Program-made: the position numbers and the translations under genes | In this document: positions 23,487 to 50,642 of the stretch, one piece after another | How the letters are laid out: each line of letters starts with the position of its first letter | Numbering within the stretch: the first letter of the stretch is position 1 | Assembly (NCBI GenBank): GCA_963817685.1 | Contig: CAWFPN010000022.1 | Location: 40,197 to 104,196, forward strand | Origin: an uncultured Verrucomicrobiae bacterium | GTDB taxonomy: Bacteria > Verrucomicrobiota > Verrucomicrobiia > Palsa-1439 | Direction: 5' to 3' | DNA length: 64,000 nt | The notes under the pieces: generated by a model | Seen by the model: only the letters and a program-made list of their open reading frames with translations | Told to the model about the DNA's origin: nothing | Database searches by the model: none

Positions 23487-27082
<3,596 letters not shown>

Positions 27083-28093: not shown

Positions 28094-29157
28094 GCCGCGG
28101 CCCTCTTTTCATATTTGTACCAGGCGGCGCAGACGCCTTCGCTGGACACCATGCACGGCCCGACCGGATGGGCCGGTGAACAGGCGCGTCCGAACAAGCG
28201 GCATTCCAGCGGCGTCAACACCCCTCGCAACACATCGCCGCACCGGCACCCGGCGGGGACATGCGCTTCACTGAACGGCACACCCAGTCTCCGCGCGGCG
28301 TCGAAGCGCGCGTATTTCGGGCGAATGCTCAGCCCGCTTTGCGCGATGGCGCCCATGCCGCGCCAGCTCGTGTCGCACGGCTCGAACACATCGCGCAACA
28401 GCCGTTGCGCGGCGGGATTGCCCTGTTCGGTGACGGACCGGCTGTATTCCACCTCCACCACGGCGCGGCCATCCAGCCGCTGCTGGAGCAATAGCGAAAT
28501 CGCCTTCAGGATGTCCCAGGCCTCAAACCCGGTGACCACACAGGGAATCTGATAGCGCTCGCAGATGAACCGGTACATCGCCGCGCCCGTGATCACGCTG
28601 ACATGGCCGGGACAGATGAATCCATCGATCCGGGTGGTCTGGTCCTTGAGCAACGCCTCCATCGCCTGCGGCATCGTCTTGTGCGCGCAGAGCACTGAGA
28701 AATTATTGAGGCCGTCCCGCGCCGCGCTGACGATGCTCCAGGCCACGGCCGGCGCGGTGGTTTCGAAGCCGATCCCGAGAAAAACGACCGTCTTGCCGGG
28801 GCATTCCCGCGCCAGCACCAGCGCATCGGTGGGCGAGTACACGATGCGCACATTGGCGCCCGCCGCCCGTTCCTGTTCCAGCGAGGATTCGCTGCCCGGC
28901 ACCCGCAACAGGTCGCCGAACGTGGCGACGATCACGTCCGGCCGGCGGCAGAGCCCGATCGCCGCGTCGATGTAGTTGGTGTCGGTGACGCAGACGGGAC
29001 AACCGGGGCCGGAGATCAATTTCACGTTGGCCGGCAGCAACTGGCGCAGCCCCGTGCGAAAGGCCACCATCGTGTGCGTGCCGCAGACTTCCATGAACCG
29101 TACTTCGCGATGGAGGCGGCCCGCCAGTTCGTCGATGGTTTGGACAAGGGTCTTCAT
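28090..29157 (-). CDS. hypD: Hydrogenase maturation protein HypD
   Basis: MEVCGTHT, GPGCPVCVT, GFETTAP, PGHVS, GPCMVSSEGVC. Confidence 0.97.
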   Translation of the reverse strand: MKTLVQTIDELAGRLHREVRFMEVCGTHTMVAFRTGLRQLLPANVKLISGPGCPVCVTDTNYIDAAIGLCRRPDVIVATFGDLLRVPGSESSLEQERAAGANVRIVYSPTDALVLARECPGKTVVFLGIGFETTAPAVAWSIVSAARDGLNNFSVLCAHKTMPQAMEALLKDQTTRIDGFICPGHVSVITGAAMYRFICERYQIPCVVTGFEAWDILKAISLLLQQRLDGRAVVEVEYSRSVTEQGNPAAQRLLRDVFEPCDTSWRGMGAIAQSGLSIRPKYARFDAARRLGVPFSEAHVPAGCRCGDVLRGVLTPLECRLFGRACSPAHPVGPCMVSSEGVCAAWYKYEKRAAA

Positions 29158-29381
29158 GCCAGCGCCTCGCGCAGGTCTGTTGCCGCCCGGATTGCTTCCA
29201 GTTCGTCGACTTCGCTCTGGTCCCATTTGTGGATGGCGAACCCGGCGTGCACCAGCACGTGGTCGCCCAGACGCGGCTCGTCAACGAGCGACACGTCCAC
29301 GTCGCGCAACGCGCCGTCGACGGAGATCGTCGCCTTCGTCCCGTTCAGCTCCACGATCTTTGCTGGCACGGCTAGGCACAT
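29154..29381 (-). CDS. hypC: Hydrogenase chaperone HypC
   Basis: MCLAVPAKIV...VLVHAGFAI. Confidence 0.95.
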   Translation of the reverse strand: MCLAVPAKIVELNGTKATISVDGALRDVDVSLVDEPRLGDHVLVHAGFAIHKWDQSEVDELEAIRAATDLREALA

Positions 29382-31672: not shown

Positions 31673-32421
31673 CCGAGGGTCACCTCGTTGTGATGATGGC
31701 GATGGGGATGTTGGTGGGGCTGGATGATGGCGCTGAGGCCGGAGGCATCGTGCGTGTGCGGCTCGAAATGCGTCTCGCCGCGGACCACGTGCTCCAGCCA
31801 GTGCGTCCATTGCCCGAGGCCGGCGCCGGACTTGCAGGAGACTTGCAACACGGGCGCGCTGGCGTTGAGTTGGCGGAAATCGCGGAGGAACAGATCAAAG
31901 TCGAAATCGGTATACGGCAGCAGATCGATTTTGTTGAGCACGAGGGCGCTGATTTCGTGAAAGAGCAGCGGATATTTGGCCGGCTTGTCGTGTCCTTCCG
32001 TGACACTGAGGACGCCGACCTTGGCCGTCTCACCCAGATCGAACTCGGCGGGGCAGGCGATGTTGCCAACGTTCTCGATGAACAGCAGGTCGAGCGCGTC
32101 CAGATCGAGTTCACCGATCCCGCGCTGCACCAGCGGCGCTTCCAGATGACATGCGCCGCCCGTGAGCAGTTGGACGACGGGGACGCCGAGTTTCTCGATG
32201 CGTTCGCCATCGCGGGTGGTGGCGATGTCGCCTTCCAGCACCGCGATCCGGAACTGTTCGCGCAACGCCGGGATCGTCTGTTCCAGCAGAGAGGTTTTGC
32301 CGGCGCCGGGGGCGCTGATCACGTTGATGGCGGTCACGTGTTTGGCCAAAAGCTGTTGCCGGATACGCGAGGCAAGCTGATCGTTTGCCTCCATGACATT
32401 ACGCAGGATTTTGATGTTCAT
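31669..32421 (-). CDS. hypB: Nickel-insertion GTPase HypB with C-terminal His-rich tail
   Basis: PGAGKTSLLE, GGACHL, ENVGNIACPAEFDLGE, KPAKYP, NKIDL. Confidence 0.96.
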   Translation of the reverse strand: MNIKILRNVMEANDQLASRIRQQLLAKHVTAINVISAPGAGKTSLLEQTIPALREQFRIAVLEGDIATTRDGERIEKLGVPVVQLLTGGACHLEAPLVQRGIGELDLDALDLLFIENVGNIACPAEFDLGETAKVGVLSVTEGHDKPAKYPLLFHEISALVLNKIDLLPYTDFDFDLFLRDFRQLNASAPVLQVSCKSGAGLGQWTHWLEHVVRGETHFEPHTHDASGLSAIIQPHQHPHRHHHNEVTLG

Positions 32422-32441
32422 ACAACCTCGCCCCTAGACTT

Positions 32442-32457
32442 AGCACTGCCGATGCCA
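32442..32457 (-). promoter_or_regulatory. sigma54 (-24/-12) promoter of the hypB-F-C-D-E-nifJ operon
   Basis: Minus strand reads TGGCATC-GGCA-GTGCT (GG-N10-GC), ending 20 bp upstream of hypB. Confidence 0.75.
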
Positions 32458-32537
32458 CGGCGGTTGACACATTTACAAGTCATTGTGGCTGTGGTTGTTA
32501 CTCGTTTGACTGGTAGGAAGTCGATTGTCTGAGACAA

Positions 32538-32580
32538 CGACATCATGTCACAGCACAATGGGTCACTGGACAAGTTGTCA
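32538..32580. promoter_or_regulatory. Tandem palindromic enhancer (UAS) pair
   Basis: CGACATCATGTCA (32538-50) and GGACAAGTTGTCA (32568-80), 30 bp apart, about 80-125 bp upstream of the sigma54 site. Confidence 0.75.
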
Positions 32581-32637
32581 ATCGGCCTGTTCGGCGGGTT
32601 ATGACGACGTTTTCGCCTCACTTGAGGCGGGGGGAGA

Positions 32638-34050
32638 TTATTTGCGTTTGGCGGCGCCGCTGGCGTAGGCGGCGGCCTCGACGGCGCGGGCGACGCGGCG
32701 GGCGACCTGTTTGTTGAACACGCTGGGAATGATGTATTCCTCGCTCAACTCGTCCGGTGCGATGCAACCGGCGATGGCTTTGGCGGCCGCGAGTTTCATC
32801 GATTCGTTGATGTCGGTCGCGTGCGCATCGAGCGCGCCGCGGAAAATGCCGGGGAAGGCGAGGACGTTGTTGATCTGGTTGGGGTAATCGCTTCGTCCGG
32901 TGGCGATGATCCGCGCATAGGGCTCGGCGTCTTCCGGGGCGATCTCCGGCGTCGGGTTGGCCAGGGCGAACACGATGGGGTCCTTCGCCATTTTTTTCAA
33001 TGCCGCGACGGGAAACACGTCGGGACCGCTGACACCGATAAACAGGTTTGCCCCGCGCGCGGCGTCCAGGATCGACCCGGAACGGTTTTGGGGGTTGGTA
33101 TGTTCGGCCAGCCAGGCTTTGCTGAAATCGAGGTCGGGCAGCCGTTTCCGGCAGACAATCCCTTTGCGGTCGCAACAAATGATGTGGCGGGCGCCGGCGG
33201 ACTGCAGCATTTTCGTGATGGCGACGCCCGCGGCGCCGGCGCCGACGATGAGGATTTTGACGGTGCTGAGTTTCTTTTTGAGGATCTTGAGCGCGTTCAA
33301 TGCGGCGGCCAGCACGACAACGGCGGTGCCGTGCTGGTCGTCGTGGAACACGGGGATGTCCAGTTCCTTTTTCAGCCGTTGTTCGACCTCGAAACAGCGC
33401 GGGGCGCTGATGTCTTCGAGATTGATCCCGCCGAAGCCGGTGGAAATCCATTTTACCGCGGAGATGATCTCCTCGACGTTCTGGGTCTGGAGGCAAATCG
33501 GGTAGGCGTCGATGCCACCGAACTCCTTGAAGAGCATGGCTTTGCCTTCCATGACGGGCATGGCGGCTTCCGGGCCGATATTGCCCAGGCCGAGCACGGC
33601 GGACCCGTCGCTGACGACGGCGACGGAGTTGTGCTTGATGGTCAGGGAGCCGGCTTTGCGTTTGTCTTCGGCGATGGCCAGGCAGACCCGGGCGACACCC
33701 GGCGTGTAGGCCATCGACAGCGTGTCGCGCGTGGTCAGGGGCACTTTGTTTTGGATGCTGATCTTGCCGCCGAGGTGCATCAGGAACACGCGGTCGGAGA
33801 CGTTGAGCACGGTGACGCCGTTGAGGCGTTTCACGGCGTTGACAATCGATTTGGCGTGCGCGTCGTCGCGGGCGCTGACCGTCAGGTCGCGCACTTTGAA
33901 CTCGCGGTCGGCGCGCACCACGTCCACCGCGCCCGGATCGCCTTGCTGGCGCGCGATGACGTGCAGGAGCCGGGCGAACATGCCCGACACATTCTTGATG
34001 CGCAAGCGCATCGTAAAACTATAACTGACGCTCGGCGATTTCTGGCTCAT
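32638..34050 (-). CDS. NAD(P)-dependent malic enzyme with N-terminal ACT domain
   Basis: ACT-like N-terminus; [62 protein letters not shown]. Confidence 0.93.
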
Positions 34051-34084
34051 GATGCGACCCACCTTGGGGATTCCCCCCGTTCCG

Positions 34085-34459
34085 TCAGCCCGCGCAGGCG
34101 GCTGCCGGCACAGTTGGCGCGGCCAATTCAACAGTCGTCAACTGCAGTTCATCCCCGGAGAGTAGCGCGGCTTTCAGCGAATGGCAACGGGGACATTCAA
34201 ACCAGTTCTGTTCCACGGGAAACACCAGGCGGCAGACGTCGCAGCGGGCGGAGGCGTCGCATTTCTCGATGGCCAGCGTGGAATGTTCCAGCGGCGTTCC
34301 GTTGACCGCCGCGTCATAACAAAACCGCAGCATCTCCGGTTCGATCTGGCGCAGCCGGCCGACGCGCACGCCGACGGTCCGCACTCGCGCGCCGGGATGA
34401 GCGCGCAACTGCTCGTCGACCAACTCGATCAACGCTTCGACGATGGACATCTCATGCAT
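34085..34459 (-). CDS. hypA: Nickel chaperone HypA
   Basis: MHEMSI, CDVC, CPRC. Confidence 0.95.
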   Translation of the reverse strand: MHEMSIVEALIELVDEQLRAHPGARVRTVGVRVGRLRQIEPEMLRFCYDAAVNGTPLEHSTLAIEKCDASARCDVCRLVFPVEQNWFECPRCHSLKAALLSGDELQLTTVELAAPTVPAAACAG

Positions 34460-34931
34460 GGCCGGCCCCGCTGGGGATGTTGCTCCGTGCCTGCAGGGAC
34501 AGAACCAATCGCGTGACTTGCCTGACCACGTCAATGGCCGCCAGTTCCGTGGCGGGCGATAAGGCGGTCCCGAAATTGAAATTCTCCCCGCGAATGCTGA
34601 ACAACGCCGCCCGGGGCAGGCGGTGATACAACGTCTGGCTCAACGCCAGCAGATCGCCGGGCGTGAAATAATGCGTCACCGCATGGCTTTGCAGCGACGG
34701 CGTGACTTCCCGGCGGGTGACGGGTTGCGGACTCTGCGCGGTTGCGGCGTCCACGAACACAATCAGGTCGTAGTGGCTGATGGACTCGGCGAGTTCGACT
34801 TCGAGCTGCTGGGTGATCAGGAACTCGGTGTTGGCCAGGCCTGCCTTCTCCAATTGTTCGACGACAAACCAGCCCGCGCCGTCGTCGGAGCGGCTGCGGT
34901 TCCCATAGCCGATGACGAGCACCTGCTTCAC
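34452..34931 (-). CDS. Hydrogenase maturation protease (HoxW-like)
   Basis: LVIGYGNRSRSDDGAG, VFVDA, conserved His (VTHYF). Confidence 0.9.
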   Translation of the reverse strand: MKQVLVIGYGNRSRSDDGAGWFVVEQLEKAGLANTEFLITQQLEVELAESISHYDLIVFVDAATAQSPQPVTRREVTPSLQSHAVTHYFTPGDLLALSQTLYHRLPRAALFSIRGENFNFGTALSPATELAAIDVVRQVTRLVLSLQARSNIPSGAGHA

Positions 34932-36377
34932 TTAAGCGCCTCCGTCGCGCTGCAACGTCTGCAGCAGGTTGCCTTGTGCGTCGAGCAGGTCCACCAGCAG
35001 CGGCATCTGGCCGACCGCGTGCGTCGAGCAGGACAAGCAGGGATCATAGCAGCGAATCGCCGCCTCGACGCGGTTTAACATTCCCTCCTGCAACTGATGG
35101 GACTTCACGTATTTTTCAGCGACGGCCTTGACGGCGCGGTTCATGGCGAGGTTGTTGTGGCCGGTGGCGACGATCAGGTTCACCTTCTCAACGCGCCCGT
35201 GCTCGTCCACCCAATAATGATGGAACAAGGTGCCGCGCGGCGCCTCGATCACGCCCACACCCTGCTCGTTGGCCGGGGTGGCGTTGACCACAATCTCCGT
35301 GCCGCAAATAGCGGGGTCTTCCAGCAATTGCTGGATGCGCTCCAGCGCGCACACGATCTCGATCAACCGCGCCCAGTGATAGTAAAACGAGCTGTGCCGC
35401 GGCGGGATGCGCGGTGTGCGCCACTCCTGCAACTCCGCGTCCGCCAGCGGAGTGGAAATCCGGTCCACTACGTTCAACCGCGCCAGCGGGCCGACGCGAT
35501 ACAGGCCGTCGGGATAGCCGAGTGACTTGATGAACGGGAATTTCAGGTACGACCAGTCCTCCGTCGTCTCGGCAATCACGTCAAGGTAGTCGGCCGGTTT
35601 GACCTGGTCGGCGATGACGTTGCCTGTTGTATCGCAGAAGCGCAACTGGCCGTCGTAATGTTCCAGCGAGCCGTCGGCCCGCACCAGCCCCATGAAGCTG
35701 GAGTCGAACGACGCGAATTCCTCGACCTCCCGCAAATTGTCCCGTTGATATTTCTTCAACAATTCGAGCGCGAACTGCGCATGCTGCATCGCTTCCGGCA
35801 GGCCCGCCAGCATCGCTTCGCGGTCGGCGGCGGCCAGCGCCTTGTTAACGCCGCCGGGCACGGGGAAGTCCGCGTGGATCTTGCGGCCGCCCGTGCGCTT
35901 GATGACTTCCTGGCCGAACTGGCGCAGCCGGATTCCGCGCCGGGCAATGTCGGGATGTTGCTGGATCAGGCCCATCACGTTGCGCAACGCCGGGTTGCTG
36001 TCGAAGCCAAGCAGCAAATCCGGGGCGCTGAGATGGAAGAAACTCAAGGCATGCGACTGGGTGATCTGTCCCATGTGCAGCAACTCGCGCAACAGTTTCG
36101 CCGTGCGCGGAATATCGACGCCGAGAATCGCATCGCAGGCCTTCGCGCTGGCCAGCAGATGGCTCACGGGGCAGATGCCGCAGATGCGCGCGGTGATTTG
36201 CGGCATCTCGGCGAAAAACCTGCCTTCGCAGAATTTTTCAAACCCGCGGAATTCGACCACGTGGAACCGCGTGTCCGCCACGTTGCCCGCGTCGTCGAGG
36301 TGGATGGTGATTTTCGCGTGCCCCTCGATGCGGGTCACGGGATTGATCGTAATCGTCTTATTGTTGGTCTCAGTCAT
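34932..36377 (-). CDS. hoxH: Group 3 [NiFe]-hydrogenase large subunit (HoxH/HydL-like)
   Basis: PVTRIEGH, L1 [16 protein letters not shown]2 [10 protein letters not shown] plus a cleavable C-terminal extension. Confidence 0.95.
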
Positions 36378-36916
36378 AACGCATGTTGGTTGTATCCCAT
36401 TGCGGCGCGCGGCCCGCCAGCAACTCGGTCAGCGCGTACCAGATCGCGTCGGCATCCGGCGGACAGCCGGGAATATGGGCGTCCACCTTCACAAATTCCT
36501 GGATCGGCCGCACCTTGGCCAGCAGCTTCGGCACTTCGGGTGCGTGCGGCACTTCGCCCACCTGGGTGCTTTCCGTTTCGACATAACCCGCGCTCGAGCA
36601 CGTCCTGCAGCTTCTGGCAATTGCGCAGGGCCGGGATGTTGCCCGAGATCGCGCAATCCCCGAGCGCGATGAGCACTTTGCATTGCGCCCGCATTGTGCG
36701 CAACACGTGTTCGTTCTCCTCGTTGCAGACGGCGCCCTCAACGATGCCCACGTCCACCGGCGGGATTTCCTTCACGTCGGTGATCGGGCTGGCGGTGAAC
36801 TCGACCAGCTTCGCCAGGTCGATCAGACGCTCGTCCAGGTCCAGAAACGACATGTGGCAGCCCGAACAACCGCCCAGCCACGCCGTCGCCACTTTGATTT
36901 TCGGTTTGTCGCTCAT
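36370..36916 (-). CDS. hoxY: [NiFe]-hydrogenase small subunit (HoxY/HydS-like, single FeS cluster; frameshift near 36588)
   Basis: [20 protein letters not shown] in one frame; IPGCPP in the next frame. Confidence 0.9.
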
Positions 36917-38736
36917 GTAAAAATGGTCTCCAGAATGGCCGCGTCCTCGCGCGCCTGGCCGTGCGGGGGCAGGGCCGCGCGCAACGGCAGGACCCGTCCT
37001 TCGAAGTTCGTGGTGGAACCGTTTTTCTCCGACCAGACCGTCGATGGCAGCACCACCCGGGCAACGTCTGTCAGGGCCGATTGGTAGGCGGCCTGCACGA
37101 CGACGCAATCGATCTGCTCCAGCATCGCGCGCACGTGCCGTTCTTTCAGGATCTGCGCACCGCCGGCAGACTCGTCACCGGCGACGATCTGCAGGAAATT
37201 CAGCGGCTGCACGCCCAGCCACGTCGAGATGTCCTCGACGGCTTCGATCCCGGCGGCCGCCAGGGCGAGACTGTTGGTGCCCGTGGGCAACTGGATCGGC
37301 GCCAGCATCGCGCCTCCGTTGCCGCCGGCGGCGAGCGTCTCGATGAGCCGGTCGAGAATTGTGATCCCGACCGGCGTCATCGCGGTCGGCCCATAGATCA
37401 ATACGGGCCGCTTCGTCTGGGACAGCACCTCACCCAGGTGGTTCCAGAATTTTCGTTCCAGGCTGACGACTGGCGCGGAAATATCGGCGTAGGTGTCGAG
37501 GTCGCCCCGGCGCGATTCGAGGACCACGAGCTTGGCGCCGCGTTTGCGCACCGCCGTGCGGATCTTCGCCGCCACCACCCCGTGCGTGCGGCTTGGATCG
37601 GCGCCGATCAGGATGATCGCGTCGGCGTCCTCCAGCCGCCGCAAACTGTCGGGCGAAAACTCCGGTGTGCCGCACAACGCCGCCTCCTTGTCCGCCACGA
37701 ACATGCCGATGCGGTCGAAGTGGACGCCGATTGTCTGCAGCGTGCCGATCGTCTGATTCGTCACCCGCGGTGAAATCAACAGCGCTGTTTCCCAATCAAT
37801 CGCCTCGCGGATCGCCTGGCGCACGACGCCCAGCGCTTCGTCCCAGGTGGCCGGTTTCAGTTTGCCGCCCTGGCGCACCAGCGGCCCCAAAATGCGCCGG
37901 CGCGGTTCGGCCCAGGTGCCGTAACGGCCTTTGACGCAAAGATGGCCGCGATTCACGTCCGACGCGGGGTCGCCAAACACGTCGACGACGCGGTTGTCTT
38001 TCGTGTACACGACCAGTCCGCACCCGACCGGGCACTCGATGCACGTGGTCCGGGTCTGCTGGCATTTGGCGAGCGGGCCGTGAAACGCCGCCGCCTTGTC
38101 GAACAACGCCCCGGTCGGACAGGCCGCGACGCACGCGCCGCAGAGCGTGCAGGAGGTGGACGCGCCGAAGGTGCTGTTCAAATCGATGATGATCTGGTTC
38201 TTCACGCCGCGGTAACCGATGTCGAGGGTGTGGACGCCTTCGATCTCGTCGCAGGTGCGGACGCAGCGCGTGCAGAGAATGCAGCGGTTGTGGTCCAGCC
38301 CGAAATACTTGCCCGAGACGTCCTGCGGCAGCACCGGGTAGAGATAGGGATACCGGATCGCGTCGATGCCGGCCTTGTAGCCCTGTTGTTGCAGGTCGCA
38401 ATCGCCCTTGTTCATCGGGCAGATCGGGCAGAAATGGTTGCGTTCGCTGAAGAGCAACTCCAGCGTCAGCCGGCGCAACTGTTGCAGGCGCGGGCTGTTG
38501 GTGGTGATCGTGTTGCCGTCCACGGCGGGTGTCGCGCACGAAGGAACGACCTTGGGACTGCCCTTGATTTCCACGATGCACATGCGGCAGCCGCCCCATG
38601 GCGTGAGGTGTTTCATGTAGCACAGCGTGGGGATTTCGATGCCGTTGGCTTGGGCGATTTGCAAAATGGTCTGGCCCTGCGCGCCCTTGCACGGTTTGTC
38701 ATCAATCGTCAGGGTGATTTCCTTGGGAGCGATCAT
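36913..38736 (-). CDS. HoxU-like FeS subunit fused to a cofactor-less FdhF/NuoG-like domain (HydA of HydABCSL type), 607 aa
   Basis: PTLC..GGCRMC..PSC [2Fe-2S]; NHFCPIC..DC; CILCTRCVRTC; CTLCGACVAACP; CIECPVGC..LCVKGR; degenerate molybdopterin-oxidoreductase-like C-terminus (VVLPSTVWSEKNGSTTNFEGR); no H-cluster motifs. Confidence 0.85.
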   Translation of the reverse strand: MIAPKEITLTIDDKPCKGAQGQTILQIAQANGIEIPTLCYMKHLTPWGGCRMCIVEIKGSPKVVPSCATPAVDGNTITTNSPRLQQLRRLTLELLFSERNHFCPICPMNKGDCDLQQQGYKAGIDAIRYPYLYPVLPQDVSGKYFGLDHNRCILCTRCVRTCDEIEGVHTLDIGYRGVKNQIIIDLNSTFGASTSCTLCGACVAACPTGALFDKAAAFHGPLAKCQQTRTTCIECPVGCGLVVYTKDNRVVDVFGDPASDVNRGHLCVKGRYGTWAEPRRRILGPLVRQGGKLKPATWDEALGVVRQAIREAIDWETALLISPRVTNQTIGTLQTIGVHFDRIGMFVADKEAALCGTPEFSPDSLRRLEDADAIILIGADPSRTHGVVAAKIRTAVRKRGAKLVVLESRRGDLDTYADISAPVVSLERKFWNHLGEVLSQTKRPVLIYGPTAMTPVGITILDRLIETLAAGGNGGAMLAPIQLPTGTNSLALAAAGIEAVEDISTWLGVQPLNFLQIVAGDESAGGAQILKERHVRAMLEQIDCVVVQAAYQSALTDVARVVLPSTVWSEKNGSTTNFEGRVLPLRAALPPHGQAREDAAILETIFT

Positions 38737-40586
38737 GCCGGCACCCCTCCTGCCATGGGTTCTTCCTGCGGTTCCTGTGTGTGCACCCGGCCGGGCGACG
38801 TCTTCTTGACCGCGCCGAACAGGCAGGCGTCGAAGCAGGCCCCGCACTGGATGCATTTCGAGGGATCCAGGTGGAATTTCTTCTGGCCTTCGACCTTGTG
38901 AATGGTCTGCGCCGCGCAGGCGCGCGCACACAGCGAACAACCTTTGCAAAGCGGCTGGTCGATCTCAAAATGCAGCAGGGACCGGCAGACGCGCGCGGGG
39001 CAACGCCGGTCGAGAATGTGCGCCTCGTACTCGTCGCGGAAATAGCGCAACGTGGTCAGCACCGGATTCGGCGCCGTCTGGCCAAGCCCGCACAGGCTGG
39101 TGTCCTTGACCATCGCCGCGAGATCTTCGAGCTTCCGAATGTCATCCATCTCGCCCTGGCCCGAGCAGATGCGGTCAAGGATGTTCAACATCTGGCGGGT
39201 CCCGACGCGGCAGGGAGGGCATTTGCCGCACGATTCATCGCAGCAGAATTCCATGAAGAACCGCGCCACGTCCACCATGCACGAATCCTCGTCCATCACC
39301 ACCAGGCCGCCCGACCCCATGATCGAGCCCAGCTGTTGCAGCGTCTCGTACTCGATCGGCGTATCGAGGTGCTGTTCGGGGATCACGCCGCCCGATGGGC
39401 CGCCGGTCTGCACCGCCTTGAATTTCTTGCCGTTGGGAATGCCGCCGCCGACGCTGAAAATCATCTCGCGCAACGTGGTGCCGTAGGGCATCTCCGCCAC
39501 GCCGGTGTTGTTGATCTTGCCGGCCAGGCAGAAGACCTTTGTCCCCTTGGTCCGTTCCGTGCCAATGGCGGCGAACCACTTCGCGCCTTTGAGGATGATC
39601 GGCCGGATCGTGGCCCAGGTCTCCACATTATTGATATTGGTCGGCTTGCCCCACAGCCCGCGTTGGGCCGGGAAGGGCGGACGCGGTTGCGGCTGGCCGC
39701 GGCGGCCTTCGACGCTGCGCATCAGCGCCGTTTCTTCGCCACAGACGAATGCGCCCGCGCCGATGCGGACCTCCACGTCGAAATCAAATCCGCTCTCGAA
39801 CAAATTTTTGCCGAGCAACCCGTACTTGTAGGCCTGTTCGATGGCGATGTGCAGGCGTTTAACGGCCAGGCCGTACTCGGCCCGGATATAAATGAACCCG
39901 CGGCTGGCCCCCATCGCGCGCGCGCCGATGGCCATGCCCTCGAGCACGCTGTGCGGGTCGCCTTCGAGCACCGAACGGTTCATAAACGCGCCGGGATCGC
40001 CCTCGTCGGCGTTGCAGACGACGTATTTGGGAAATTCGGGCGCCTGGCGCATGATCTCCCACTTCTTGCCCGTCGGGAACCCCGCGCCGCCGCGGCCACG
40101 CAAGCCGCTGGCCTTGATCTCTGCGATGATCTGCTCGGGTGTCATCGACGTCAGCACCTTGCCCAGCGCGGTGTACCCGTCCCGCGCGATGTACTCCTCG
40201 ATGTTCTCGGGATTGATAATGCCGCAGTTGTCGCGCACGATGCGCATCTGGCGGTTGAAAAAGGTGAAATCGGCCTGTGTCAGCACCGCGTTCTGCGTCT
40301 GCGGGTCCAGCGGCAGCAGTTTCGCGTACGGCCGGCCCTTCAGGAAATGCTCCTCCACCAGCTTCGGCACCTCGGCAGCCAGCACGTTCCTGTAAAACGT
40401 GCCGTCGGGATGCACCAACGATACCGGACCGAGGTCGCACCGGCCCATGCAGCCGGTCTCGACGATTTCGATTTCGTCTTCGAGCCCGCGCTTCTTCAAT
40501 TCCGCCCGCAACGCGTCACGCGTGGCGAGACTGCCGCAGCTGGTGCAGCCCGTGCCCGTGCAAACCAGGAAATGCGTGCGAATCAT
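38733..40586 (-). CDS. NADH/FMN-binding subunit, HydB/HndC/NuoF-type with C-terminal 2x[4Fe-4S]
   Basis: N-terminal CTGTGC..CMGRC; GLRGRGGAGFPTG; NADEGDPGAFM; GGPSGG; ESCGKCPPCR; HILDRRCPARVC; CKGCSLCARAC; CIQCGACFDAC. Confidence 0.93.
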   Translation of the reverse strand: MIRTHFLVCTGTGCTSCGSLATRDALRAELKKRGLEDEIEIVETGCMGRCDLGPVSLVHPDGTFYRNVLAAEVPKLVEEHFLKGRPYAKLLPLDPQTQNAVLTQADFTFFNRQMRIVRDNCGIINPENIEEYIARDGYTALGKVLTSMTPEQIIAEIKASGLRGRGGAGFPTGKKWEIMRQAPEFPKYVVCNADEGDPGAFMNRSVLEGDPHSVLEGMAIGARAMGASRGFIYIRAEYGLAVKRLHIAIEQAYKYGLLGKNLFESGFDFDVEVRIGAGAFVCGEETALMRSVEGRRGQPQPRPPFPAQRGLWGKPTNINNVETWATIRPIILKGAKWFAAIGTERTKGTKVFCLAGKINNTGVAEMPYGTTLREMIFSVGGGIPNGKKFKAVQTGGPSGGVIPEQHLDTPIEYETLQQLGSIMGSGGLVVMDEDSCMVDVARFFMEFCCDESCGKCPPCRVGTRQMLNILDRICSGQGEMDDIRKLEDLAAMVKDTSLCGLGQTAPNPVLTTLRYFRDEYEAHILDRRCPARVCRSLLHFEIDQPLCKGCSLCARACAAQTIHKVEGQKKFHLDPSKCIQCGACFDACLFGAVKKTSPGRVHTQEPQEEPMAGGVPA

Positions 40587-40964
40587 TTATTTCTGCTCCG
40601 GTTCCTTGATCTTGCCGACGGCCAGGCCGTCGACGACCTTGCCCTTTTCCAGGTGCTCCGAGACGATCTGGCGCGCGGCGGCGGCATTGACCTTCGCGTA
40701 GGTGACCTTTTCCCCCGACGCGTCCTCCACCCGGATCACCGGCTCGGCATCGACCAGCCCGATCTCGCCCGTGACGGCGACTTCCACGTTCTCGATGCCG
40801 CGTTTGTCGAGTTCATCGAGCATGGAGGTCATCACGTCCCGCGCTCCGGCGGCGATGCCGCTGGTGCCCATGCTGAACACCACGCGGTACTTCTTGTTGC
40901 CTTCACGCAGCGCGACGTGACGTTGCGCCTTTTCTTTGAGTTTTTTGAGTTCGTCGAGGTTCAT
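40587..40964 (-). CDS. Thioredoxin-like ferredoxin homolog (HydD/HndB-like) lacking all cysteines
   Basis: MGTSGIAAGARDV..TGEIGLVDAEP..VTYAKV..IVSEHL matches the family pattern MxTCGIAAGA..TGCIGxC..EP, with Cys replaced. Confidence 0.8.
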   Translation of the reverse strand: MNLDELKKLKEKAQRHVALREGNKKYRVVFSMGTSGIAAGARDVMTSMLDELDKRGIENVEVAVTGEIGLVDAEPVIRVEDASGEKVTYAKVNAAAARQIVSEHLEKGKVVDGLAVGKIKEPEQK

Positions 40965-41424
40965 CGTGTCTCCCTTCCTGTGAGCTGAAATGAAACGTCT
41001 GGCCGTTGGAACGGTAGTGCAGTTGCACGTCCACATCCTGGCGGGCGCACAACGTGAGAATGGTGGCATTGAGGTCGCCCAGCGGCGGCCGGTCGATGTG
41101 CGAATAGCGCATCGAGGCCGTCACCGACGTGCCCCGGCCCGGCGCGGAGCGGACGTGGAACGTTCCGCCGCACATTTCGGAAGTCTGCCGCAAAAACGCC
41201 AGCCCCAGGCCGATGGCTTTCAATCGGCTTTTCTTGCTGGTCCGATTAAAGTTGAGCACCTCGCGCAATGTCCGGGCGTCCATGCCCTTGCCGTCGTCGC
41301 GGATGCGGATGATCAGCCAGTCGCGCCGGATGTCTTCGATCACCACGACCTGCAGCGTCTTCGCCCCGGCGGCCAGTGAATTCATGCCGATGTCCAGGAT
41401 GTGCAGCGAGAGTTCTTCAAGCAT
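40903..41424 (-). CDS. Stand-alone histidine-kinase-like ATPase (HATPase_c); 3' end uncertain
   Basis: ELSLHILDIGMNS, IRDDGKGMD, IGLGL, SHIDRPPLGD, as in hyd/hnd operon accessory genes. Confidence 0.85.
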   Translation of the reverse strand: MLEELSLHILDIGMNSLAAGAKTLQVVVIEDIRRDWLIIRIRDDGKGMDARTLREVLNFNRTSKKSRLKAIGLGLAFLRQTSEMCGGTFHVRSAPGRGTSVTASMRYSHIDRPPLGDLNATILTLCARQDVDVQLHYRSNGQTFHFSSQEGRHDEPRRTQKTQRKGATSRRAA

Positions 41425-41995
41425 ACTTCTTCAACTCCTTCTGGCAAAAACGCGGGATCTTGTCGGGCGTGAGCTTGCCGTACACGTCGTCGCCGACGGT
41501 GATGGCCGGCGCCAGCGCGCAGGCGCCGATGCAGCGGGCCGTTTGCAGGCTGAACAACCCGTCCTTGGTCGTTTCGCCGTGGGCGATGCCGAGTTGCTGG
41601 CCGAGCCGTTCGACGACCGTGGCGGCCCCGCGCACGTGGCAGGTCGTGCCCGTGCAGACCATGATCTGGTATTTGCCGCGCGGCACGACAGAGAAGAAAT
41701 TGTAGAATGTAGTTACTCCATAGACGTGGGCCAGCGGCAGCTTCATGGCCGTGGCGACGTAACGCAGCACGTCGGGCGCTAGATAACCGAACGTGTGCTG
41801 CGCGGCGTGCAACACCTGGATCAGCGCCGTCGGTTCGTAGTTGTAATGCTGCAGCGTCTGGTCGAGCGACGCGAAGCGTTGGTCGCCGCTCGGATGGTGC
41901 GGCAGCATCGGCGCGGTGGACGGGTTCGCGGTGAGCGTGCCCGGCTGCGGCGTGATCGATGCCGTGGCGCTGGCGGGTGTCGTGGTCTCACTCAT
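41417..41995 (-). CDS. [2Fe-2S] subunit HydC/HndA/HoxE/NuoE-type
   Basis: LIQVLHAAQ..FGYL, VYGVTTFY, CTGTTCHVRG, RCIGACALAP. Confidence 0.92.
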   Translation of the reverse strand: MSETTTPASATASITPQPGTLTANPSTAPMLPHHPSGDQRFASLDQTLQHYNYEPTALIQVLHAAQHTFGYLAPDVLRYVATAMKLPLAHVYGVTTFYNFFSVVPRGKYQIMVCTGTTCHVRGAATVVERLGQQLGIAHGETTKDGLFSLQTARCIGACALAPAITVGDDVYGKLTPDKIPRFCQKELKKYA

Positions 41996-42353: not shown

Positions 42354-43275
42354 GAGGGTGCTCCCGCTTGGCGCAGGTAAATTTCCGAGCGCAACCGCGT
42401 TCCGCGTTTGCCGTCCGAGGTAATGGTCAGCTTGTCCGAGCAGCGCTTGATGTTGGGCAATCCCATGCCCGCGCCGAAGCCGAGTTCACGCGGCAGGCGG
42501 CCCGCGGTGGACCAGCCTTCCTGCATGGCCTGGTCGATGTTCTCGATGCCCGGCCCGGTGTCGATCGCCTCGATCACCACCTTGTCGGGACCGATGGTGG
42601 CGATGATCTCGCCGCCGAGCGAATGGATGATGATGTTCGTCTCCGCTTCGTAGGCGACGACGGCGGCCCGGCGGCGGATTTCCGGGTCGATGCCGCGGTC
42701 GCGCAGACCTGGCGCATGCGCTGCGAGACTTTGCCCGCGCTGTCGTAATCGCCCGTGCGCACGTGCGCGCGGACGACCACGCGTTGGGCGGCTTCGTCAT
42801 CGGCCCGGGAGGCGCGCAGCACGGCTTCGTGGGCCAGCGCTTCCTCGGCGCGCCGTTCGAGGTGATGCATCAGGCAGCCGGTGATGTCGCCGCGGGTAAT
42901 GACGCCGACCAGCCGGTCGTTGCCGTCGAGCACGGGAAAACGGCCGAACTCATGCCGGTCGAATTCCGCCACGGCGCGCACCAGCGAAAAATGGTCGCGG
43001 AGCGCGACACGACGTTGCGGGCCATGCGTTGTTCGGCGGGCTCATCGATATAGCCCTTGTCAAGCGCGCGGATGATGTCTTCGATGCTGACGATGCCGAG
43101 CAAGTGTTTCGCCGTCGATCATGGGCACCCCGGAGAACGCGGCGCGCTTTCATCAGCATGCTGGATCGTGCGCAGCGAATCGGACGGAGCTGGCGGTGAT
43201 CGGCGGACTTGCTCATGGCGTCGCGCACGCGCAATTCATAGACGAGGATCTGGGCGACCGAGATTTTTCGCGCAT
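42350..43275 (-). CDS. CBS-domain plus RsbT/RsbW-like Ser/Thr kinase (several frameshifts)
   Basis: Fragments: LRVRDAM, GIVSIEDII, GRFPVLD..LVGVITRGDI; DTGPGIENIDQAMQEGWST..GFGAGMGLPNIKRCSD. Confidence 0.8.
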
Positions 43276-43295
43276 CGCCCGCGCCGGCGGATTGC

Positions 43296-45541
43296 TCAGA
43301 TGGCGGGCGCGGTGGTGCATCGCGGGTCTCCTAGGGTCGGCGGCGCCTCCGCGGCGAGCGCCATGCGGACGTCGGCCACGTGTGCGCCTTTGCCCTGCGC
43401 ATGGACGATGAGCGGGTTGATGTCCAGTTCGGCGATCTCGGGAAAATCGATGACGAGTTGCGAAAGACGCTCCAGACAATCGGCAATGGCATCGATATCG
43501 GCCGGCGGCTGACCGCGGAACCTCTCGAACACTTTGGCCGCGCGGATCGAGTTGATCATGTTGCGGGCGCCGAGTTCGCGGATCGGCGCCAGGCGGAAAC
43601 TGACGTCCTTGAGCACTTCGACGTACGTGCCGCCCATGCCGAACATGATGATGTGGCCGAAGGCGGGGTCCTTGCTGATGCCCGAGGATCACCTCGACGC
43701 CGCGTGCCGGCCATGGCTTCGACTTCCACGCCGAGGAGCCGCGCACTGGGTAGTTTTTGTTTCACCCCGTTTGTGATTTTTTCATAACCCAGCACGGGCT
43801 TCCTCGGCGTGGAAATATTCAGCAGCACGCCGCCGACATCGACCTTGTGGACGACGTCGGGCGAAGCAATTTTCATGGCGACGGGTCCGCCGATCTTTTC
43901 GAACAACGCGGCGGCCTCGTCTTCGCTCTTGGCCAAAGCGTGTTGGAGCACGCGGGAAACCATAGGCCTTCAACACGGCCAGCGCTTCGGCTTCGGGCAG
44001 GAACGTGCGGCCTTCGCCGCGGACCTTGGCGAAAATCTCGCGCACGGCGTTCTTGATCGACCTCGAAATGGCGCTCCTGGGTGCGCGGGCGCGTGCAGCC
44101 ATTGCGTGTAGCGGCACATGGCGCCCGAGCGAGCGGGACGCGTTCTCGGGAAACTCGTAGTTGGGGACGCCGTATTGCTCGAGGATGCGAACGCCGGCGG
44201 ACACGTCCACGTGGCCGAGGAACGAGGCGAGCACCGGTTTCTTGCTGGGCGGCGCAATCTCGCCGATCGTGCCGCGCGATGGCCTCGATTTCGGTCATGG
44301 ACTGCGGCGTGAGCAGAACCACCAGCCCGTCGACGTTCGGGTCGCCGAGCACGGCTTCGAGAGCGGCCGTCGTAGCGATCGCAGCGTGGCGTCGCCGATG
44401 ACGTCGACGGGATTAGAAAAGTTCGCGGTCGGAGGCAGCTTCGCCTTGAGGGACTCGAGTGTCTCGGGTCGCAGTTTGGCGAGCTCGAGTCCATAACGGA
44501 TGGCGGCATCGGTGGCCATGATGCCGGGTCCACCCGCGTTGGTGACGATGGCGAAGCGGTTGCCTTTGGGCAACGGCTGGCGTGAGAACCCGACCGCGAA
44601 GTCGAAGAGTTCTTCCACAGTGTCAACGCGCAGGATGCCGGCCTGCGCGAAAATGGCGTCGTAGACGGCGTCGCTGCCGGCCAGCGCGCCGGTGTGGGAA
44701 CGGGCGGCGGCGGCGCCTTGCTGGGTCCGGCCGGATTTGATGGCCAGGATCGGTTTGCGATGGGCGAGTTCGCCCGGTGATCTCGCGAGCCAGATCAATG
44801 AAGGCCCGGCCGTCGGCCAGCGTTTCCAGGTACATCAAGATCACGTCGGTGCGTCGTCGGTCGGCCAGATAACGCAGCAAGTCCATGTTCGGTCGACGTC
44901 GGCCTTGTTGCCGACGCTGATGAATTTCGAAAAACCGATGTCGCGGCCCCGGGCGTAGTCCAGGATGCCCGCGCAGAGCGCGCCGCTTTGGGACACGAAA
45001 GCGATGTTGCCGTGTTTGGGCATGCGCGCGGGCGAAACTGGCGTTGAGCATGATGTCGGCGATCGGTGTTGATCACGCCCAGGCAGTTCGGGCCGACCAG
45101 CGGCATGTGATAACGCTGGCCAATGGCGATGATGCGTTGTTCCAGTGCGGCGCCTTCCGGGCCGATTTCCTTGAATCCCGCGGTCACGATCACCGCTCCG
45201 CGCACGCCTTTCTGGCCGCATTCCTCCAGCACTTCCGGCACAACGTTGGCGGGGACGATGATCAGGGCCAGGTCGATTTCCTGCGGGATGGCGGAGATGC
45301 TGGTGTAGGAGTGCACGCCGCAAATGGACGGGGCCTTCGGATTGACGGGATAGAGTGTGCCGCAGTAACCGCCCATCAGGATGTTCTTGAAAATGGCGTT
45401 GCCGACGCTGCCTTCGCGGTTCGAGGCGCCGATGACGGCGATGGATTTCGGCGAGAAGATTGGCGCGAGCCGATCCAACTCAGCGGCAGGCGCGGCTGCT
45501 TGCTTAGATGTCTTTTCCACTGGTATTGCGCATGTAGTCAT
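43296..45541 (-). CDS. Acetate-CoA ligase (ADP-forming), fused alpha/beta (many frameshifts)
   Basis: PKSIAVIGAS, YPVNP, GPNCLG, SQSGAL, ARSHTGALAGSD, TNAGGPG, NPVDV, KIASPDVVHKVDVGGV, FGMGG, ELDINPL across frames. Confidence 0.88.
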
Positions 45542-45558
45542 GGCCTGCCATGGGCTTT

Positions 45559-46398: not shown

Positions 46399-47853
46399 AT
46401 GGACGTAAATGTCCTGGCGTTGTCGCGCTTTCAGTTCGCGCTGACGATCATGTTTCATTATCTGTTTCCGCCGCTGACCATCGGCCTGGGCGGCCTGCTG
46501 GTTTCGCTGGAATGGAGCTATCTGCGCACCGGCGACCGCCAGTACGAGGAGGCCGCCAAATTTTGGACGAAGATTTTCGCCATCAATTTCGCCGTCGGCG
46601 TGGCCACGGGTATCGTGATGGAATTCCAGTTCGGCACGAACTGGGCGACCTATTCGCGTTTCGTGGGTGACGTGTTCGGCTCGGCGCTGGCCGCGGAGGG
46701 CATTTTCGCCTTCTTCCTCGAATCCGGATTTCTCGCCGTACTGGTGTTTGGCTGGGACAGGGTCTCGAAGCGGCTGCATTTCTTTGCGACCTGCATGGTG
46801 GCGCTCGGGGCCTTGTTTTCCTCCGTCTGGATCGTGGTGGCCAACTCCTGGCAGCAAACTCCGGCGGGGTATCACCTCGTCAGCCAGAACGGCGGCACGC
46901 GGGCGGAGATCACGGATTTTTGGGCGATGGTCTTCAGCCCGTCCAGCGTGCCCCGGCTGTTGCACGTCTGGATCGGCGCGTACATCCTCGGCGCGTTCTT
47001 TGTGATGAGCATCTCGGCCTATTACCTGTTGCGCGGCCGGCACGCCGAATTCGCCAAAAAAAGTTTCAAGTCCGGCCTGAGCCTGGCCACCGTGATGTCG
47101 CTGGCGGCCCTTGTTCAAGGCGATCTGCAGGCAAAAAAGGTCGCCGAAACGCAACCGCCCAAACTTGCCGCGATGGAGGCCCATTTTCAGACGGGCACGG
47201 GGCCCACACCGCTGTACGTGTTCGGCTTGCCCGACGAAAACGGGCAGACGATCAATCACGGCCTGGCGATCCCGGGCTTGCTAAGCCGGCTGGTGCATGG
47301 CAACGGCGATCCCGTGGCGGGCCTGGACCAGGTCCCGCGCAAGGACTGGCCGCCGGTGGCGGCGACGTTCCAGTCGTTTCACCTCATGGTCGCGTTGGGG
47401 ATGCTGTTCATCGTGATGACCCTGTTCGCCAGCGTCCTGCGCTGGCGCGGCACGCTCTTCGAGAAACGCTGGCTGCTCTGGCTGTTCGTCTGGGCCGTGC
47501 CGTTGCCCTACCTGGCCAATCAACTGGGCTGGGTCACGGCGGAAGTCGGCCGCCAGCCCTGGGTCGTGTACGGCCTGTTGCGCACCAGTGACGCGCTGTC
47601 CAAATCTGTCGTCGCCAGCCAGGTGCTCAGTTCGATCATCATCTTCACGCTGATTTACGGCCTGCTGTTTGCCGTCTGGGTGTTCGTGCTGGACAGTAAA
47701 ATCAAACACGGTCCGGAAGAACCCGCCGTTGCCGCTGCCGCTCCGGGCGCCGATGGTTTTCTCGGCCTGGCTGGACTGCGCGCGGGCACGGGCGGGCCGT
47801 CCTTGTCCGCTGCCGAAGAGGACACGCCGCCGCCGACGAAAGGGAAGGGTTGA
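46399..47853 (+). CDS. cydA: Cytochrome bd oxidase subunit I
   Basis: [52 protein letters not shown]. Confidence 0.97.
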
Positions 47854-47858
47854 CCGCC

Positions 47859-48876
47859 ATGGACCTGCATCTTGTCTGGTTTGTGTTGCTGGGTGTGTTG
47901 CTGGCGGGCTATGCCATCCTCGACGGCTTCGACCTCGGCGTCGGCATCCTGCACCTGGCCGTGAAAAAGGACGACGAACGCCGGATCCTGATGAACTCCA
48001 TCGGGCCGCTCTGGGACGGCAACGAAGTCTGGCTGGTCACCTTCGGCGGCGCGCTGTTTGCCGCGTTCCCCGAACGCCTACGCCACAGCCTTCTCCGGAT
48101 TTTACATGGCGTTCATGGTCCTGCTGTTCGCGCTGATCTTCCGCGCGGTCTCGATGGAATTTCGCAGCAAACACGAGAACGCCGCCTGGCGGAAATTCTG
48201 GGACGTGTCATTTTGCCTGGCCAGCACGGTGGCGACGCTGTTGTTCGGGGTCGCCGTCGGCAACGCGATGCGCGGCATGCCGATTGGCGCCGACCACGAA
48301 TTCCAGGGGACGTTCTTTTCCCTGCTGCATCCCTACGCGCTGCTGGTCGGTTTGTTCGCCGTGGCCACCTTTGCCATGCACGGCTCGATTTATCTCTACC
48401 TGAAAACGGAAGGCGACCTGCAGAAACGCATTCACGGCTGGATGTGGCGCACCTTCGGGGTGTTCCTGGTGCTCTACATGTTGACGACCATCTACACGCT
48501 GGTGGACGTGCCGCTGGCCACGGCCAATTTCCGCCTGCACCCGTGGTGCTGGCTCGTCGTCGTGCTCAACGTCCTGGCCATCGCCAACATCCCCCGCGCC
48601 ATCCATCTCGGACGGCCCGGCTACGCCTTCGCGTCCTCGTGCGCCACGATCGCCGCGCAAACGTTCCTCTTCGGCGTCGCGCTGTTCCCCGAACTGATCC
48701 ACTCGTCGCTCGACCCCGCCTGGAGCCTGACGATCTACAACGCCGCTTCCTCGGAGAAAACCCTGGGAATCATGGGCATCATCGCCCTGCTCGGCATGCC
48801 CTTCGTGCTGGCCTACACCGCCGTCGTCTACTGGGTCTTCCGCGGCAAAGTCCAGATCGGGAAGTTCAGTTATTAA
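47859..48876 (+). CDS. cydB: Cytochrome bd oxidase subunit II (frameshift near 48072)
   Basis: [47 protein letters not shown]. Confidence 0.93.
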
Positions 48877-48898
48877 GAACGCCTAACAAAACCGTGCT

Positions 48899-48970
48899 TG
48901 GAGGGTCGCGCTCCAGCGCGACCGCGTCGTTTTGCCCAAGCAGCGGCCACGCGGGAGCGTGGCCCTCCAG
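48899..48970. repeat. GGAG-variant REP doublet between convergent genes
   Basis: TGGAGGGTCGCGCTCCAGCGCGACC...GGCCACGCGGGAGCGTGGCCCTCCA. Confidence 0.7.
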
Positions 48971-49004
48971 AACCTCCCCGGTTTTGTTGGGGGGCTCTTA
49001 AGCA

Positions 49005-49892: not shown

Positions 49893-50171
49893 GCCAACGT
49901 TTAAGCAGCCGCTGTGCTGGACATGCCAGCCTCCCGCCGCCTCGCGCGTTCCCCCCGCGCCCCACACGCAGCAAACCCCTGCTACCATTGCCTGATCTCA
50001 CTGTTCTGTCCCCGCCAGCGTCCCCGAAGAAAATTCCACCCCGGCCCGACCGCCCCCCCGCTCCTGTCACGATTTATCCACCGTGGCCAAAGAACCACGG
50101 CCCGTGGGCCGGATTAGGCCGGAGGGGAACGATTGGCCACAGATGCACACAGATGGGGCACGGATTTCCGT

Positions 50172-50475: not shown

Positions 50476-50642
50476 GGTGTCCGGAGCTGCCGGGGCAAAA
50501 GGGCGGGGACCGTTCCCGGCAGGCGCGGCTTGCCGGGAGGCTCGCCCTCCAGACGGCCCGGCAAGGTGTGCCAATTTGGCGCAGTTTCCGTACGCGGGAG
50601 GCTTCCAGCGTGGTCAAACCTTCAGCCGCCGAAATGGCCCAA

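Follow-up and report, generated by a model that had tools for sequence, protein, structure and literature searches.

The [NiFe]-hydrogenase operon described here lies within a 64,000-nucleotide stretch of DNA (hereafter the window, meaning the whole stretch analysed) taken from a metagenome-assembled genome (MAG) of an uncultured Verrucomicrobiae bacterium, assembly GCA_963817685.1, contig CAWFPN010000022.1, forward-strand positions 40,197-104,196. We propose that it encodes a cytoplasmic enzyme of the HydABCSL kind (NiFe-Bfu, type 3), predicted from its residues and genomic context to be electron-bifurcating, and put the probability of this reading at about 0.7. The host belongs to the Verrucomicrobiia and comes from peat soil; its genome is 88% complete and is represented by 29 contigs, the longest of 925 kb. 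The type, structure and mechanism of such enzymes have already been described, and the closest named counterpart is the NiFe-HydABCSL of Acetomicrobium mobile (7T2R/7T30; PMC8880783). What is added is the extension of this architecture to Verrucomicrobiia, within a phylum for which no earlier report was found.

Nine tightly packed genes run along the minus strand from position 41995 to 34085, in the order hydC, hisK-like, hydD, hydB, hydA, hydS, hydL, endopeptidase and hypA. ATGA overlaps occur at both the hydB/hydA and the hydA/hydS junctions, the hydA ATG overlapping the hydB stop codon. A first-pass annotation, made from the sequence alone, had placed the operon on this strand with the right coordinates, lengths and motifs (HydA of 607 amino acids (aa), HydB of 617 aa). 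Its five-subunit layout holds for the structural subunits; the operon itself comprises seven genes plus maturation genes, since the hisK-like gene and hydD have to be added. The genes are as follows, with window positions, strand and supporting match.

41417..41995, minus strand: hydC, a BfuC/NuoE-like protein of 192 aa with predicted [2Fe-2S] cluster C1 (Pfam 2Fe-2S_thioredx, PF01257, 4.6e-51, 172.9 bits).
40903..41424, minus strand: hisK-like gene, 173 aa, with a HATPase_c domain only (Pfam HATPase_c, 3.4e-14).
40587..40964, minus strand: hydD, a cysteine-less thioredoxin-like ferredoxin-fold protein of 125 aa (likeness to the HydB N-terminus; no Pfam match).
38733..40586, minus strand: hydB (BfuB), 617 aa, with a predicted flavin mononucleotide (FMN)/NAD(H) site and clusters B1-B5 (Pfam domains, PDB matches, ligands).
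36913..38736, minus strand: hydA (BfuA), 607 aa, with five iron-sulphur (FeS) motifs and a NuoG/FdhF-like C-terminal domain (translation, Pfam, PDB match).
36370..36916, minus strand: hydS, the NiFe small subunit, with a read-through length of about 181 aa (Pfam Oxidored_q6 across two frames; 7t2r_E).
34932..36377, minus strand: hydL, the NiFe large subunit, 481 aa, with a ten-residue motif and the motif DPCLSCSTH (7t2r_D, 588 bits).
34452..34931, minus strand: hydrogenase maturation endopeptidase, 159 aa (NCBIfam TIGR00072, 72.4 bits against a cut-off of 47.45).
34085..34459, minus strand: hypA (Pfam HypA, 5.1e-31).

In HydB, Pfam domains follow one another in the order 2Fe-2S_thioredx (residues 4-79), Complex1_51K, SLBB, NADH_4Fe-4S and two Fer4 domains (541-592). 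The highest PDB scores are obtained with 7q4v_B (878 bits) and with 7t2r_B of A. mobile (859 bits); the top nine chains are all B subunits of Bfu-type complexes, and the score falls to about 407 bits at the next chains, those of formate dehydrogenase beta and Nqo1/complex I. As judged by these PDB bit scores, which stand in for trees of HydB and HydL with labelled references, HydB does not group with NuoF or with non-bifurcating HoxF, an outcome that the first-pass annotation had named as one that would count against its interpretation.

Residues suited to all five HydB clusters are encoded. The [4Fe-4S] cluster B1 would be held by C453, C456, C459 and C499, which are conserved in the family alignment, and the cysteines of B5 (C9, C14, C46 and C50) are present in the N-terminal [2Fe-2S] domain. 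Two CxxCxxCxxxC motifs past residue 520 form the C-terminal 2x[4Fe-4S] domain and correspond to B3/B4. In A. mobile, the [2Fe-2S] cluster B2 is reported to be bound by C438, C476, H525, C531 and C536 (PMC9304861), and alignment gives C436 (in DEDSC), C474 (in DRIC), H523, C529 and C534 as the equivalent residues here, so that all five are found. The first-pass annotation had correctly listed the N-terminal [2Fe-2S] domain, GAFM, TKVF, GGPSG and the C-terminal 2x[4Fe-4S] domain; its C/H/C/C site was partly mis-assigned, since the cysteines of 'FCCDE' align with Thr-Gln in A. mobile and hence are not B2 ligands there.

The flavin site points in the same direction. Bifurcating enzymes are marked by Ala..Met, by Phe in place of Tyr and by GGPSG (PMC8880783; PMC7311640), while the non-bifurcating NADH-dependent beta subunits have Thr/Ser and Lys/Ser/Ala for Ala..Met, Tyr for Phe, and are without GGPSG (PMC7311640). 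HydB carries GAFM (A200-F201-M202), GAGAF (F280) and GGPSG; with A..M, F and GGPSG it does not show the non-bifurcating signature (Losey et al. 2020). TKVF is present too and was rejected as a bifurcation marker: the sections consulted do not name it as one, and A. mobile has TKIF at this place. Conservation was assessed in an alignment of 23 HydB sequences from the bacterial family of the host, two rows of which are broken by frameshifts. AFM, F280 and GGPSG are invariant in 22-23 of the 23, and ligand and motif positions are kept in 21-23 rows with the exception of C474. The B2 histidine is found in 22/23 and C474 in 18/23, the exceptions including the two frameshifted rows; according to PMC9304861, the position equivalent to C474 is Thr in most BfuBs.

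HydC, a separate subunit with the predicted C1 [2Fe-2S] cluster, as in BfuC, has Bfu-type C subunits as its eight best PDB matches, 8a6t_C ranking first and 7t2r_C being among them. The core formed by HydB and HydC is thus the one also found in the [FeFe]-HydABC enzymes (7q4v, 8a6t, 7p5h), which provide the best match for each of the two proteins (7q4v_B and 8a6t_C). The difference lies in the hydrogenase site, which is here a NiFe site on separate HydS and HydL subunits, no Fe_hyd_lg_C domain being found in HydA or elsewhere in the genome.

HydA contains the Pfam domains Fer2_4, NADH-G_4Fe-4S_3, Fer4_Nqo3 and Molybdop_Fe4S4 and a Molybdopterin domain. The fifth FeS motif (C232-x2-C235-x3-C239...C267) falls within Molybdop_Fe4S4, so that both the extra CxxCxxxC..C motif and the FdhF-like domain claimed for this subunit by the earlier annotation are recovered by Pfam. 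Neither a Molydop_binding domain nor the H-cluster domain (Fe_hyd_lg_C) was found in HydA by Pfam, and the protein is predicted from its sequence to be without a pterin cofactor. The A. mobile HydA likewise has five FeS motifs and lacks an H-cluster; its chain 7t2r_A is the best PDB match (348 bits), and the five motifs of the two proteins align. In the Protein Atlas, HydA recovers protein clusters that share its Pfam set, have lengths of about 600-700 aa and come from several phyla, a context-free comparison that is silent on association with a NiFe hydrogenase.

For the hydrogenase module, HydL scores 588 bits with 7t2r_D against 455 bits with 5xf9_D, the HoxH chain of the non-bifurcating HoxFUYH of Hydrogenophilus thermoluteolus, to which it is also homologous. 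The N-terminal part of HydS likewise matches 7t2r_E best (111 bits), with 108 bits for the H. thermoluteolus enzyme (5XF9). The small subunit is short in both bifurcating-type systems, at about 180 aa here and 179 aa in A. mobile. Taken by subunit, A. mobile ranks first among the PDB matches for HydA, HydS and HydL and second for HydB, at an identity of about 58-65% (estimated from printed alignments). Its HydB agrees with the one described here in the arrangement of five clusters, in the B2 ligands and in the flavin-site motifs, and its operon holds the same five structural subunits together with hisK and hydD. The domains, the PDB scores of the five subunits and the ligand residues thus bear out the earlier assignment to the HydABCSL type and not to a Hox enzyme with short HoxU. 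Of the features open to a sequence-level test, those of the Bfu core and those of the type 3 NiFe-Bfu layout were all found, apart from a break in hydS: HydL and an adjacent hydS of the short type are present, the latter frameshifted in assembly GCA_963817685.1.

With the homologous A. mobile enzyme taken as a model, electrons would move along two branches that meet at FMN. The mid-potential branch would lead from the NiFe site (HydL) over S1 (HydS), A3, A2 and A1 (HydA) and B1 to FMN in HydB, where the NAD(H) site is located; the low-potential branch would lead from FMN over C1 (HydC), B2 and B3/B4 in the C-terminal domain of HydB to ferredoxin. The reversible reaction would be NADH + 2 reduced ferredoxin + 3 H+ <-> NAD+ + 2 oxidised ferredoxin + 2 H2. 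The coupling of H2 to NADH and ferredoxin claimed by the first-pass annotation is accordingly matched in architecture and cofactor residues, while bifurcation itself is inferred from residues and context.

The operon might instead encode an ordinary NAD(H)-linked group 3d hydrogenase that makes no use of ferredoxin, the additional HydB and HydA domains serving in electron storage or structure. The best named NCBIfam matches do point to Hox proteins, HoxE for HydC (equivalog NF005747, 191.8 against a cut-off of 224) and HoxU for the N-terminus of HydA (equivalog NF005745, 286.7 against 333), both below the cut-off; papers on peat and on Limisphaera place such genes in group 3 or 3d in the parts consulted, and slow H2 uptake with NAD+ alone is reported even for the bifurcating Synechocystis enzyme (preprint 10.64898/2026.06.25.734504). 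The HoxU model, however, spans only residues 8-218 of the 607-aa HydA, which is not a short HoxU of about 240 aa. All residues that discriminate bifurcating from NADH-only beta subunits in PMC7311640 are of the bifurcating kind, and clusters B2-B5, described in PMC8880783 as unique to bifurcating hydrogenases and listed there as absent from the non-bifurcating Hox enzyme, are all encoded. In H. thermoluteolus, HoxF corresponds to fused HydC and HydB equivalents without B2-B5 and C1 (PMC8880783), and HoxU has 242 aa. A ferredoxin-free group 3d enzyme is therefore very improbable.

The contrast with the cyanobacterial enzyme is less sharp than the first-pass annotation had it. Synechocystis HoxEFUYH (group 3d) likewise combines a NiFe hydrogenase with a NuoEFG-like diaphorase, and it is described as working with NAD(H) and ferredoxin in both directions. 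The architecture does differ: the 607-aa HydA stands in place of HoxU, and HydB gains the N-terminal [2Fe-2S] and C-terminal 2x[4Fe-4S] domains. The sharper contrast in mechanism is weakened by the 2026 preprint, in which the enzyme is reported to bifurcate and to carry the same motifs.

Several observations weigh against a bifurcating HydABCSL enzyme. Since the AFM, Phe and GGPSG motifs are reported for Synechocystis HoxEFUYH as well (10.64898/2026.06.25.734504), the separation of the two types rests on architecture and not on motifs. HydL is about as similar to the Hox-type large subunit of a genome of the same class (G028, 57%) as to that of A. mobile, so that the hydrogenase module alone cannot separate the types either. 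HydA is 85 aa shorter than its A. mobile counterpart (607 against 692 aa), and its C-terminal half aligns weakly (24.7 bits). An AlphaFold2 model of HydA built on a 15-row alignment is poor, with a mean predicted local distance difference test (pLDDT) score of 58.7 and values below 50 for residues 93-279; 7t30_A and 7t2r_A rank first in a Foldseek search with this low-confidence model, a result of little weight. Motif scanning of the window turned up no gene encoding a small 2x[4Fe-4S] ferredoxin. Finally, hydS as assembled cannot yield a full small subunit because the fourth cluster cysteine follows a shift of frame, and none of the public sequencing runs screened for the source reads contained more than 0.13 of the sampled words; the habitat labels of these low-share runs were left out of the evidence.

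The hydS frameshift, overlooked in the first-pass annotation, consists of a one-nucleotide insertion at 36584-36587, ahead of the PGCPP cysteine. The first part of the gene, 36916 to about 36587, lies in one frame and the remainder, 36585-36370, in another; Pfam Oxidored_q6 is matched over its positions 1-90 in one and 81-128 in the other. Relatives read ...VLERGFVE... within a single frame, and both parts of hydS share a frame in 20/21 named loci and in 68/69 metagenome loci. Only two public contigs, from two studies, bridge the site, at 92-93% identity, and each is one base shorter at 36584 or 36587; in run X1 no contig spans it. Programmed frameshifting was rejected, as a single frame suffices for the protein in relatives.

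The assembly is rich in such changes. In a survey, contigs of two relatives, 290 kb in all, provided 702 stop-to-stop open reading frames (ORFs) with a minimum length of 150 aa, which were searched against the whole genome; a change of frame was seen in 9 of 96 distinct ortholog-like loci, hydS included, several of them with multiple changes. The figure rises to 24/96 when stops within matches are counted too, an inflated value, as stop-to-stop queries extend into upstream DNA. The pyruvate:ferredoxin oxidoreductase (PFOR) gene, one ORF of about 1216 aa in relatives, shows one frame change near 26250-26345 in the window. By tblastn on the window, a neighbouring CBS-HATPase gene is spread over three frames and the gene for ADP-forming acetyl-CoA synthetase (ACD) over several frames with at least five in-match stops. 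The two NuoF paralogues, which lie elsewhere in the genome, are split over frames as well, and other long-contig MAGs of the group have the same operon broken at other places (L021, L036, L037). In the host genome (G000), frame changes were located on C3 at about 341-342, 396, 711-713, 788-792 and 801 kb, on C10 at about 40.4 kb and on C28 at about 15.6-16.8 kb. Because relatives are intact and the assembly is indel-rich, the hydS frameshift is probably a consensus error and not a feature of the living gene, and gene calls from GCA_963817685.1 should be read with this in mind.

The same breaks could be taken as decay, the hydS frameshift being real, the operon inactive for want of a functional small subunit, and the ACD, CBS and PFOR genes true pseudogenes. 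The frameshift does stand in the assembled sequence, the breaks are dense just upstream of the operon, in the ACD gene (at least five stops within high-scoring pairs) and the CBS gene, and the sole same-genus genome searched is without a HydL match, though it is 83% complete. The spread of frame changes over three contigs, into both NuoF paralogues and PFOR, nevertheless suits consensus indel error better, and the different break points in L036, L037 and L021 speak against decay as well. Every gene of the operon other than hydS is open, from hydC through to hypA; five of them are 74-91% identical to those of relatives, and the hisK-like, endopeptidase and hypA products reach 44-80% identity in the closest loci. 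We consider decay quite unlikely.

Two genes of the operon lie outside the structural set. HydD is 30% identical to residues 3-85 of HydB (E 6e-10) with all four cluster cysteines substituted, gives a weak NCBIfam match to a 2Fe-2S ferredoxin and none in Pfam, and by this comparison is a cysteine-less paralogue of the HydB N-terminal domain; the absence of cluster cysteines sets it apart from the A. mobile system. Its conservation is 68-91% among named loci that cover hydD in full. The position of the hisK-like gene is kept in 19 of the 20 named relatives' loci with enough flanking sequence. The A. mobile operon holds both hisK and hydD, and neither is part of the holoenzyme (PMC9304861, legend to Fig. 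1).

A HydA scan of species-representative genomes returned 24 loci, all in Verrucomicrobiota MAGs and mostly labelled Verrucomicrobiia, and the operon order is kept in all 24 where the flank allows. Orthologues of HydL (68-84% identity) occur in 16 of 24 genomes of the same family, and one at 73% in a genome of another family of the same class; the one same-genus genome searched, mentioned above, gave no match. Two genomes of another family in the class have a HydL relative at 57-58%. For one of these, G028 (locus L018, C10:95000-113000), the region was inspected and contains a Hox-like set instead, made up of HydC, a HydB that matches only residues 8-535 and is without the C-terminal domain, a short HoxU-like protein corresponding to HydA residues 9-218, and a HydS and a HydL that are 51-57% identical. 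Among 300 further genomes chosen to cover the phylum evenly, none of the 20 places listed matches HydA past residue 422.

The operon also recurs in environmental DNA. Joint Genome Institute (JGI) metagenomes contain at least 446 related stretches, the best 80 of which are 58-77% identical at full length, and metagenomes of peat, bog and wetland frequently contain the family that carries the operon. In 54/56 metagenome loci, hydS and after it hydL are found within 900 bases of the end of hydA, and in 39/42 hydC, hisK, hydD and hydB are all found upstream. About 0.7 kb of additional DNA separates hydS from hydL at L071 and L116. Contigs of metatranscriptome run X4 are 85-99% like parts of the stretch and come from relatives; they were not counted as expression, since DNA is a possible source.

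A sister form of the operon differs in HydB, which is about 1020 aa long: after the B2 ligands, Fer4_20 and Pyr_redox_2 replace the 2x[4Fe-4S] ferredoxin-type domain, giving an NfnB/GltD-like flavin adenine dinucleotide (FAD)/NAD(P)H module at the end of the protein, with hydA, hydS and hydL unchanged. It was observed at L038:3919-6981 (G019) and also at L026, L030 and L036. The GltD-type HydB accounts for 4 of the 24 named loci and for 26 of 56 evaluable metagenome loci, against 28/56 for the ferredoxin type. At metagenome loci L106 and L139 the HydB core stops just ahead of hydA and lacks both the ferredoxin-type and the GltD-type end. The main text of PMC9304861 mentions neither GltD nor NfnB nor glutamate synthase, and no description of the sister form was found in the literature consulted.

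The genes around the operon bear on its role. A cluster on the same strand (22456-34053 and 42359-45547) comprises malic enzyme, hypBFCDE, PFOR, a dihydroorotate dehydrogenase-like (DHODH-like) protein, the CBS-HATPase protein and ACD. Malic enzyme, hypB, hypF, hypC, hypD, hypE and PFOR follow downstream of hypA, and the CBS-HATPase protein and ACD lie upstream of hydC; relatives G019 and G024 have the same neighbours. These and the nearby oxidase genes are located as follows.

32638..34053, minus strand: malic enzyme with an ACT domain (Pfam malic and Malic_M).
31669-32421, minus strand: hypB (Pfam).
29372-31810, minus strand: hypF (Pfam).
About 29196-29381, minus strand: hypC (PF01455 match in the host's own genome).
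28090-29226, minus strand: hypD (Pfam).
27083-28093, minus strand: hypE (Pfam).
23487..27067, minus strand: nifJ-type PFOR (POR_N, PFOR_II, POR, EKR, Fer4 and TPP_enzyme_C over two ORFs).
42359-43555, minus strand: CBS-CBS-HATPase_c_2 protein (Pfam on the intact orthologue in relative G024).
43344-45547, minus strand: ACD (Pfam on the intact orthologue in relative G024).
46399..49001, plus strand: cydA and cydB, cytochrome bd oxidase (Cyt_bd_oxida_I, 2.1e-170; Cyt_bd_oxida_II).

The main role of the enzyme would be the release of fermentative reducing power as H2. PFOR would supply reduced ferredoxin, malic enzyme reduced nicotinamide nucleotide and ACD ATP; H2 evolution during fermentation is favoured because the neighbours would thus provide both electron donors of confurcation together with substrate-level ATP. 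Searches of the host genome, 88% complete, turned up neither an [FeFe] hydrogenase nor any NiFe large subunit besides HydL. The host would also be able to respire O2: cydAB lies 4.4 kb from hydC on the opposite strand and a heme-copper oxidase is encoded elsewhere in the genome, which supports the description of the lineage as microaerophile-capable in the first-pass annotation. In this the host differs from A. mobile, a strictly anaerobic thermophilic Synergistete.

Oxidases also lend themselves to the opposite direction of flow, in which a bifurcating enzyme would serve mainly in uptake, converting environmental H2 into NADH and reduced ferredoxin in a facultative aerobe or microaerophile. 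The reaction of the A. mobile enzyme is reversible (PMC8880783), cytochrome bd and a heme-copper oxidase are both present, and the operon encodes the sole hydrogenase found. Against this, PFOR, ACD and malic enzyme constitute a fermentative route from pyruvate to acetate that yields both donors of the enzyme, and NiFe-HydABCSL is described as O2-sensitive in PMC8880783. A predominant role in uptake appears unlikely, and H2 evolution in fermentation is preferred.

On the plus strand, the block at 46399-53816 consists of cydA, cydB and, after them, genes for a protoglobin-PAS-HisKA-HATPase sensor kinase and for a sigma-54-dependent response regulator, with an ACT-domain protein beside it on the minus strand. 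The oxidase genes, the protoglobin-PAS kinase and the sigma-54 regulator may form an O2-responsive control unit next to the hydrogenase.

NiFe-Bfu has been reported from six Synergistetes sequences and from Halorhabdus, in a survey that excludes metagenomic data (PMC9304861). No report of NiFe-HydABCSL from Verrucomicrobiota was found in the literature, supplementary trees and tables being outside its scope, and the string 'Verrucomicrobi' is absent from the main text of PMC9304861. Such genes are easily passed over, as annotation models name the subunits generically as NuoE/F/G-like, and ecological papers, as far as consulted, file them as group 3/3d.

If the enzyme is bifurcating, H2 production by its carriers needs both NADH and reduced ferredoxin, which would change the thermodynamic limits for fermentation in peat. 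A wider and distinctly tentative interpretation, which we regard as possible though doubtful, is that the NiFe-Bfu enzyme is the sole hydrogenase in this abundant Verrucomicrobiia family of peat and wetland, shares a gene island some 24 kb long with PFOR, malic enzyme, ACD and all hyp genes, beside cytochrome bd, the protoglobin-PAS kinase and the sigma-54 regulator, and may act as an O2-switched valve for fermentative H2 in facultative aerobes. Should this be true, these bacteria would constitute a major, as yet unrecognised H2 source in peat, at present filed under 'group 3d'; the GltD form would be a new Bfu subtype, its HydB coupling H2 to both NAD(H) and NADP(H).

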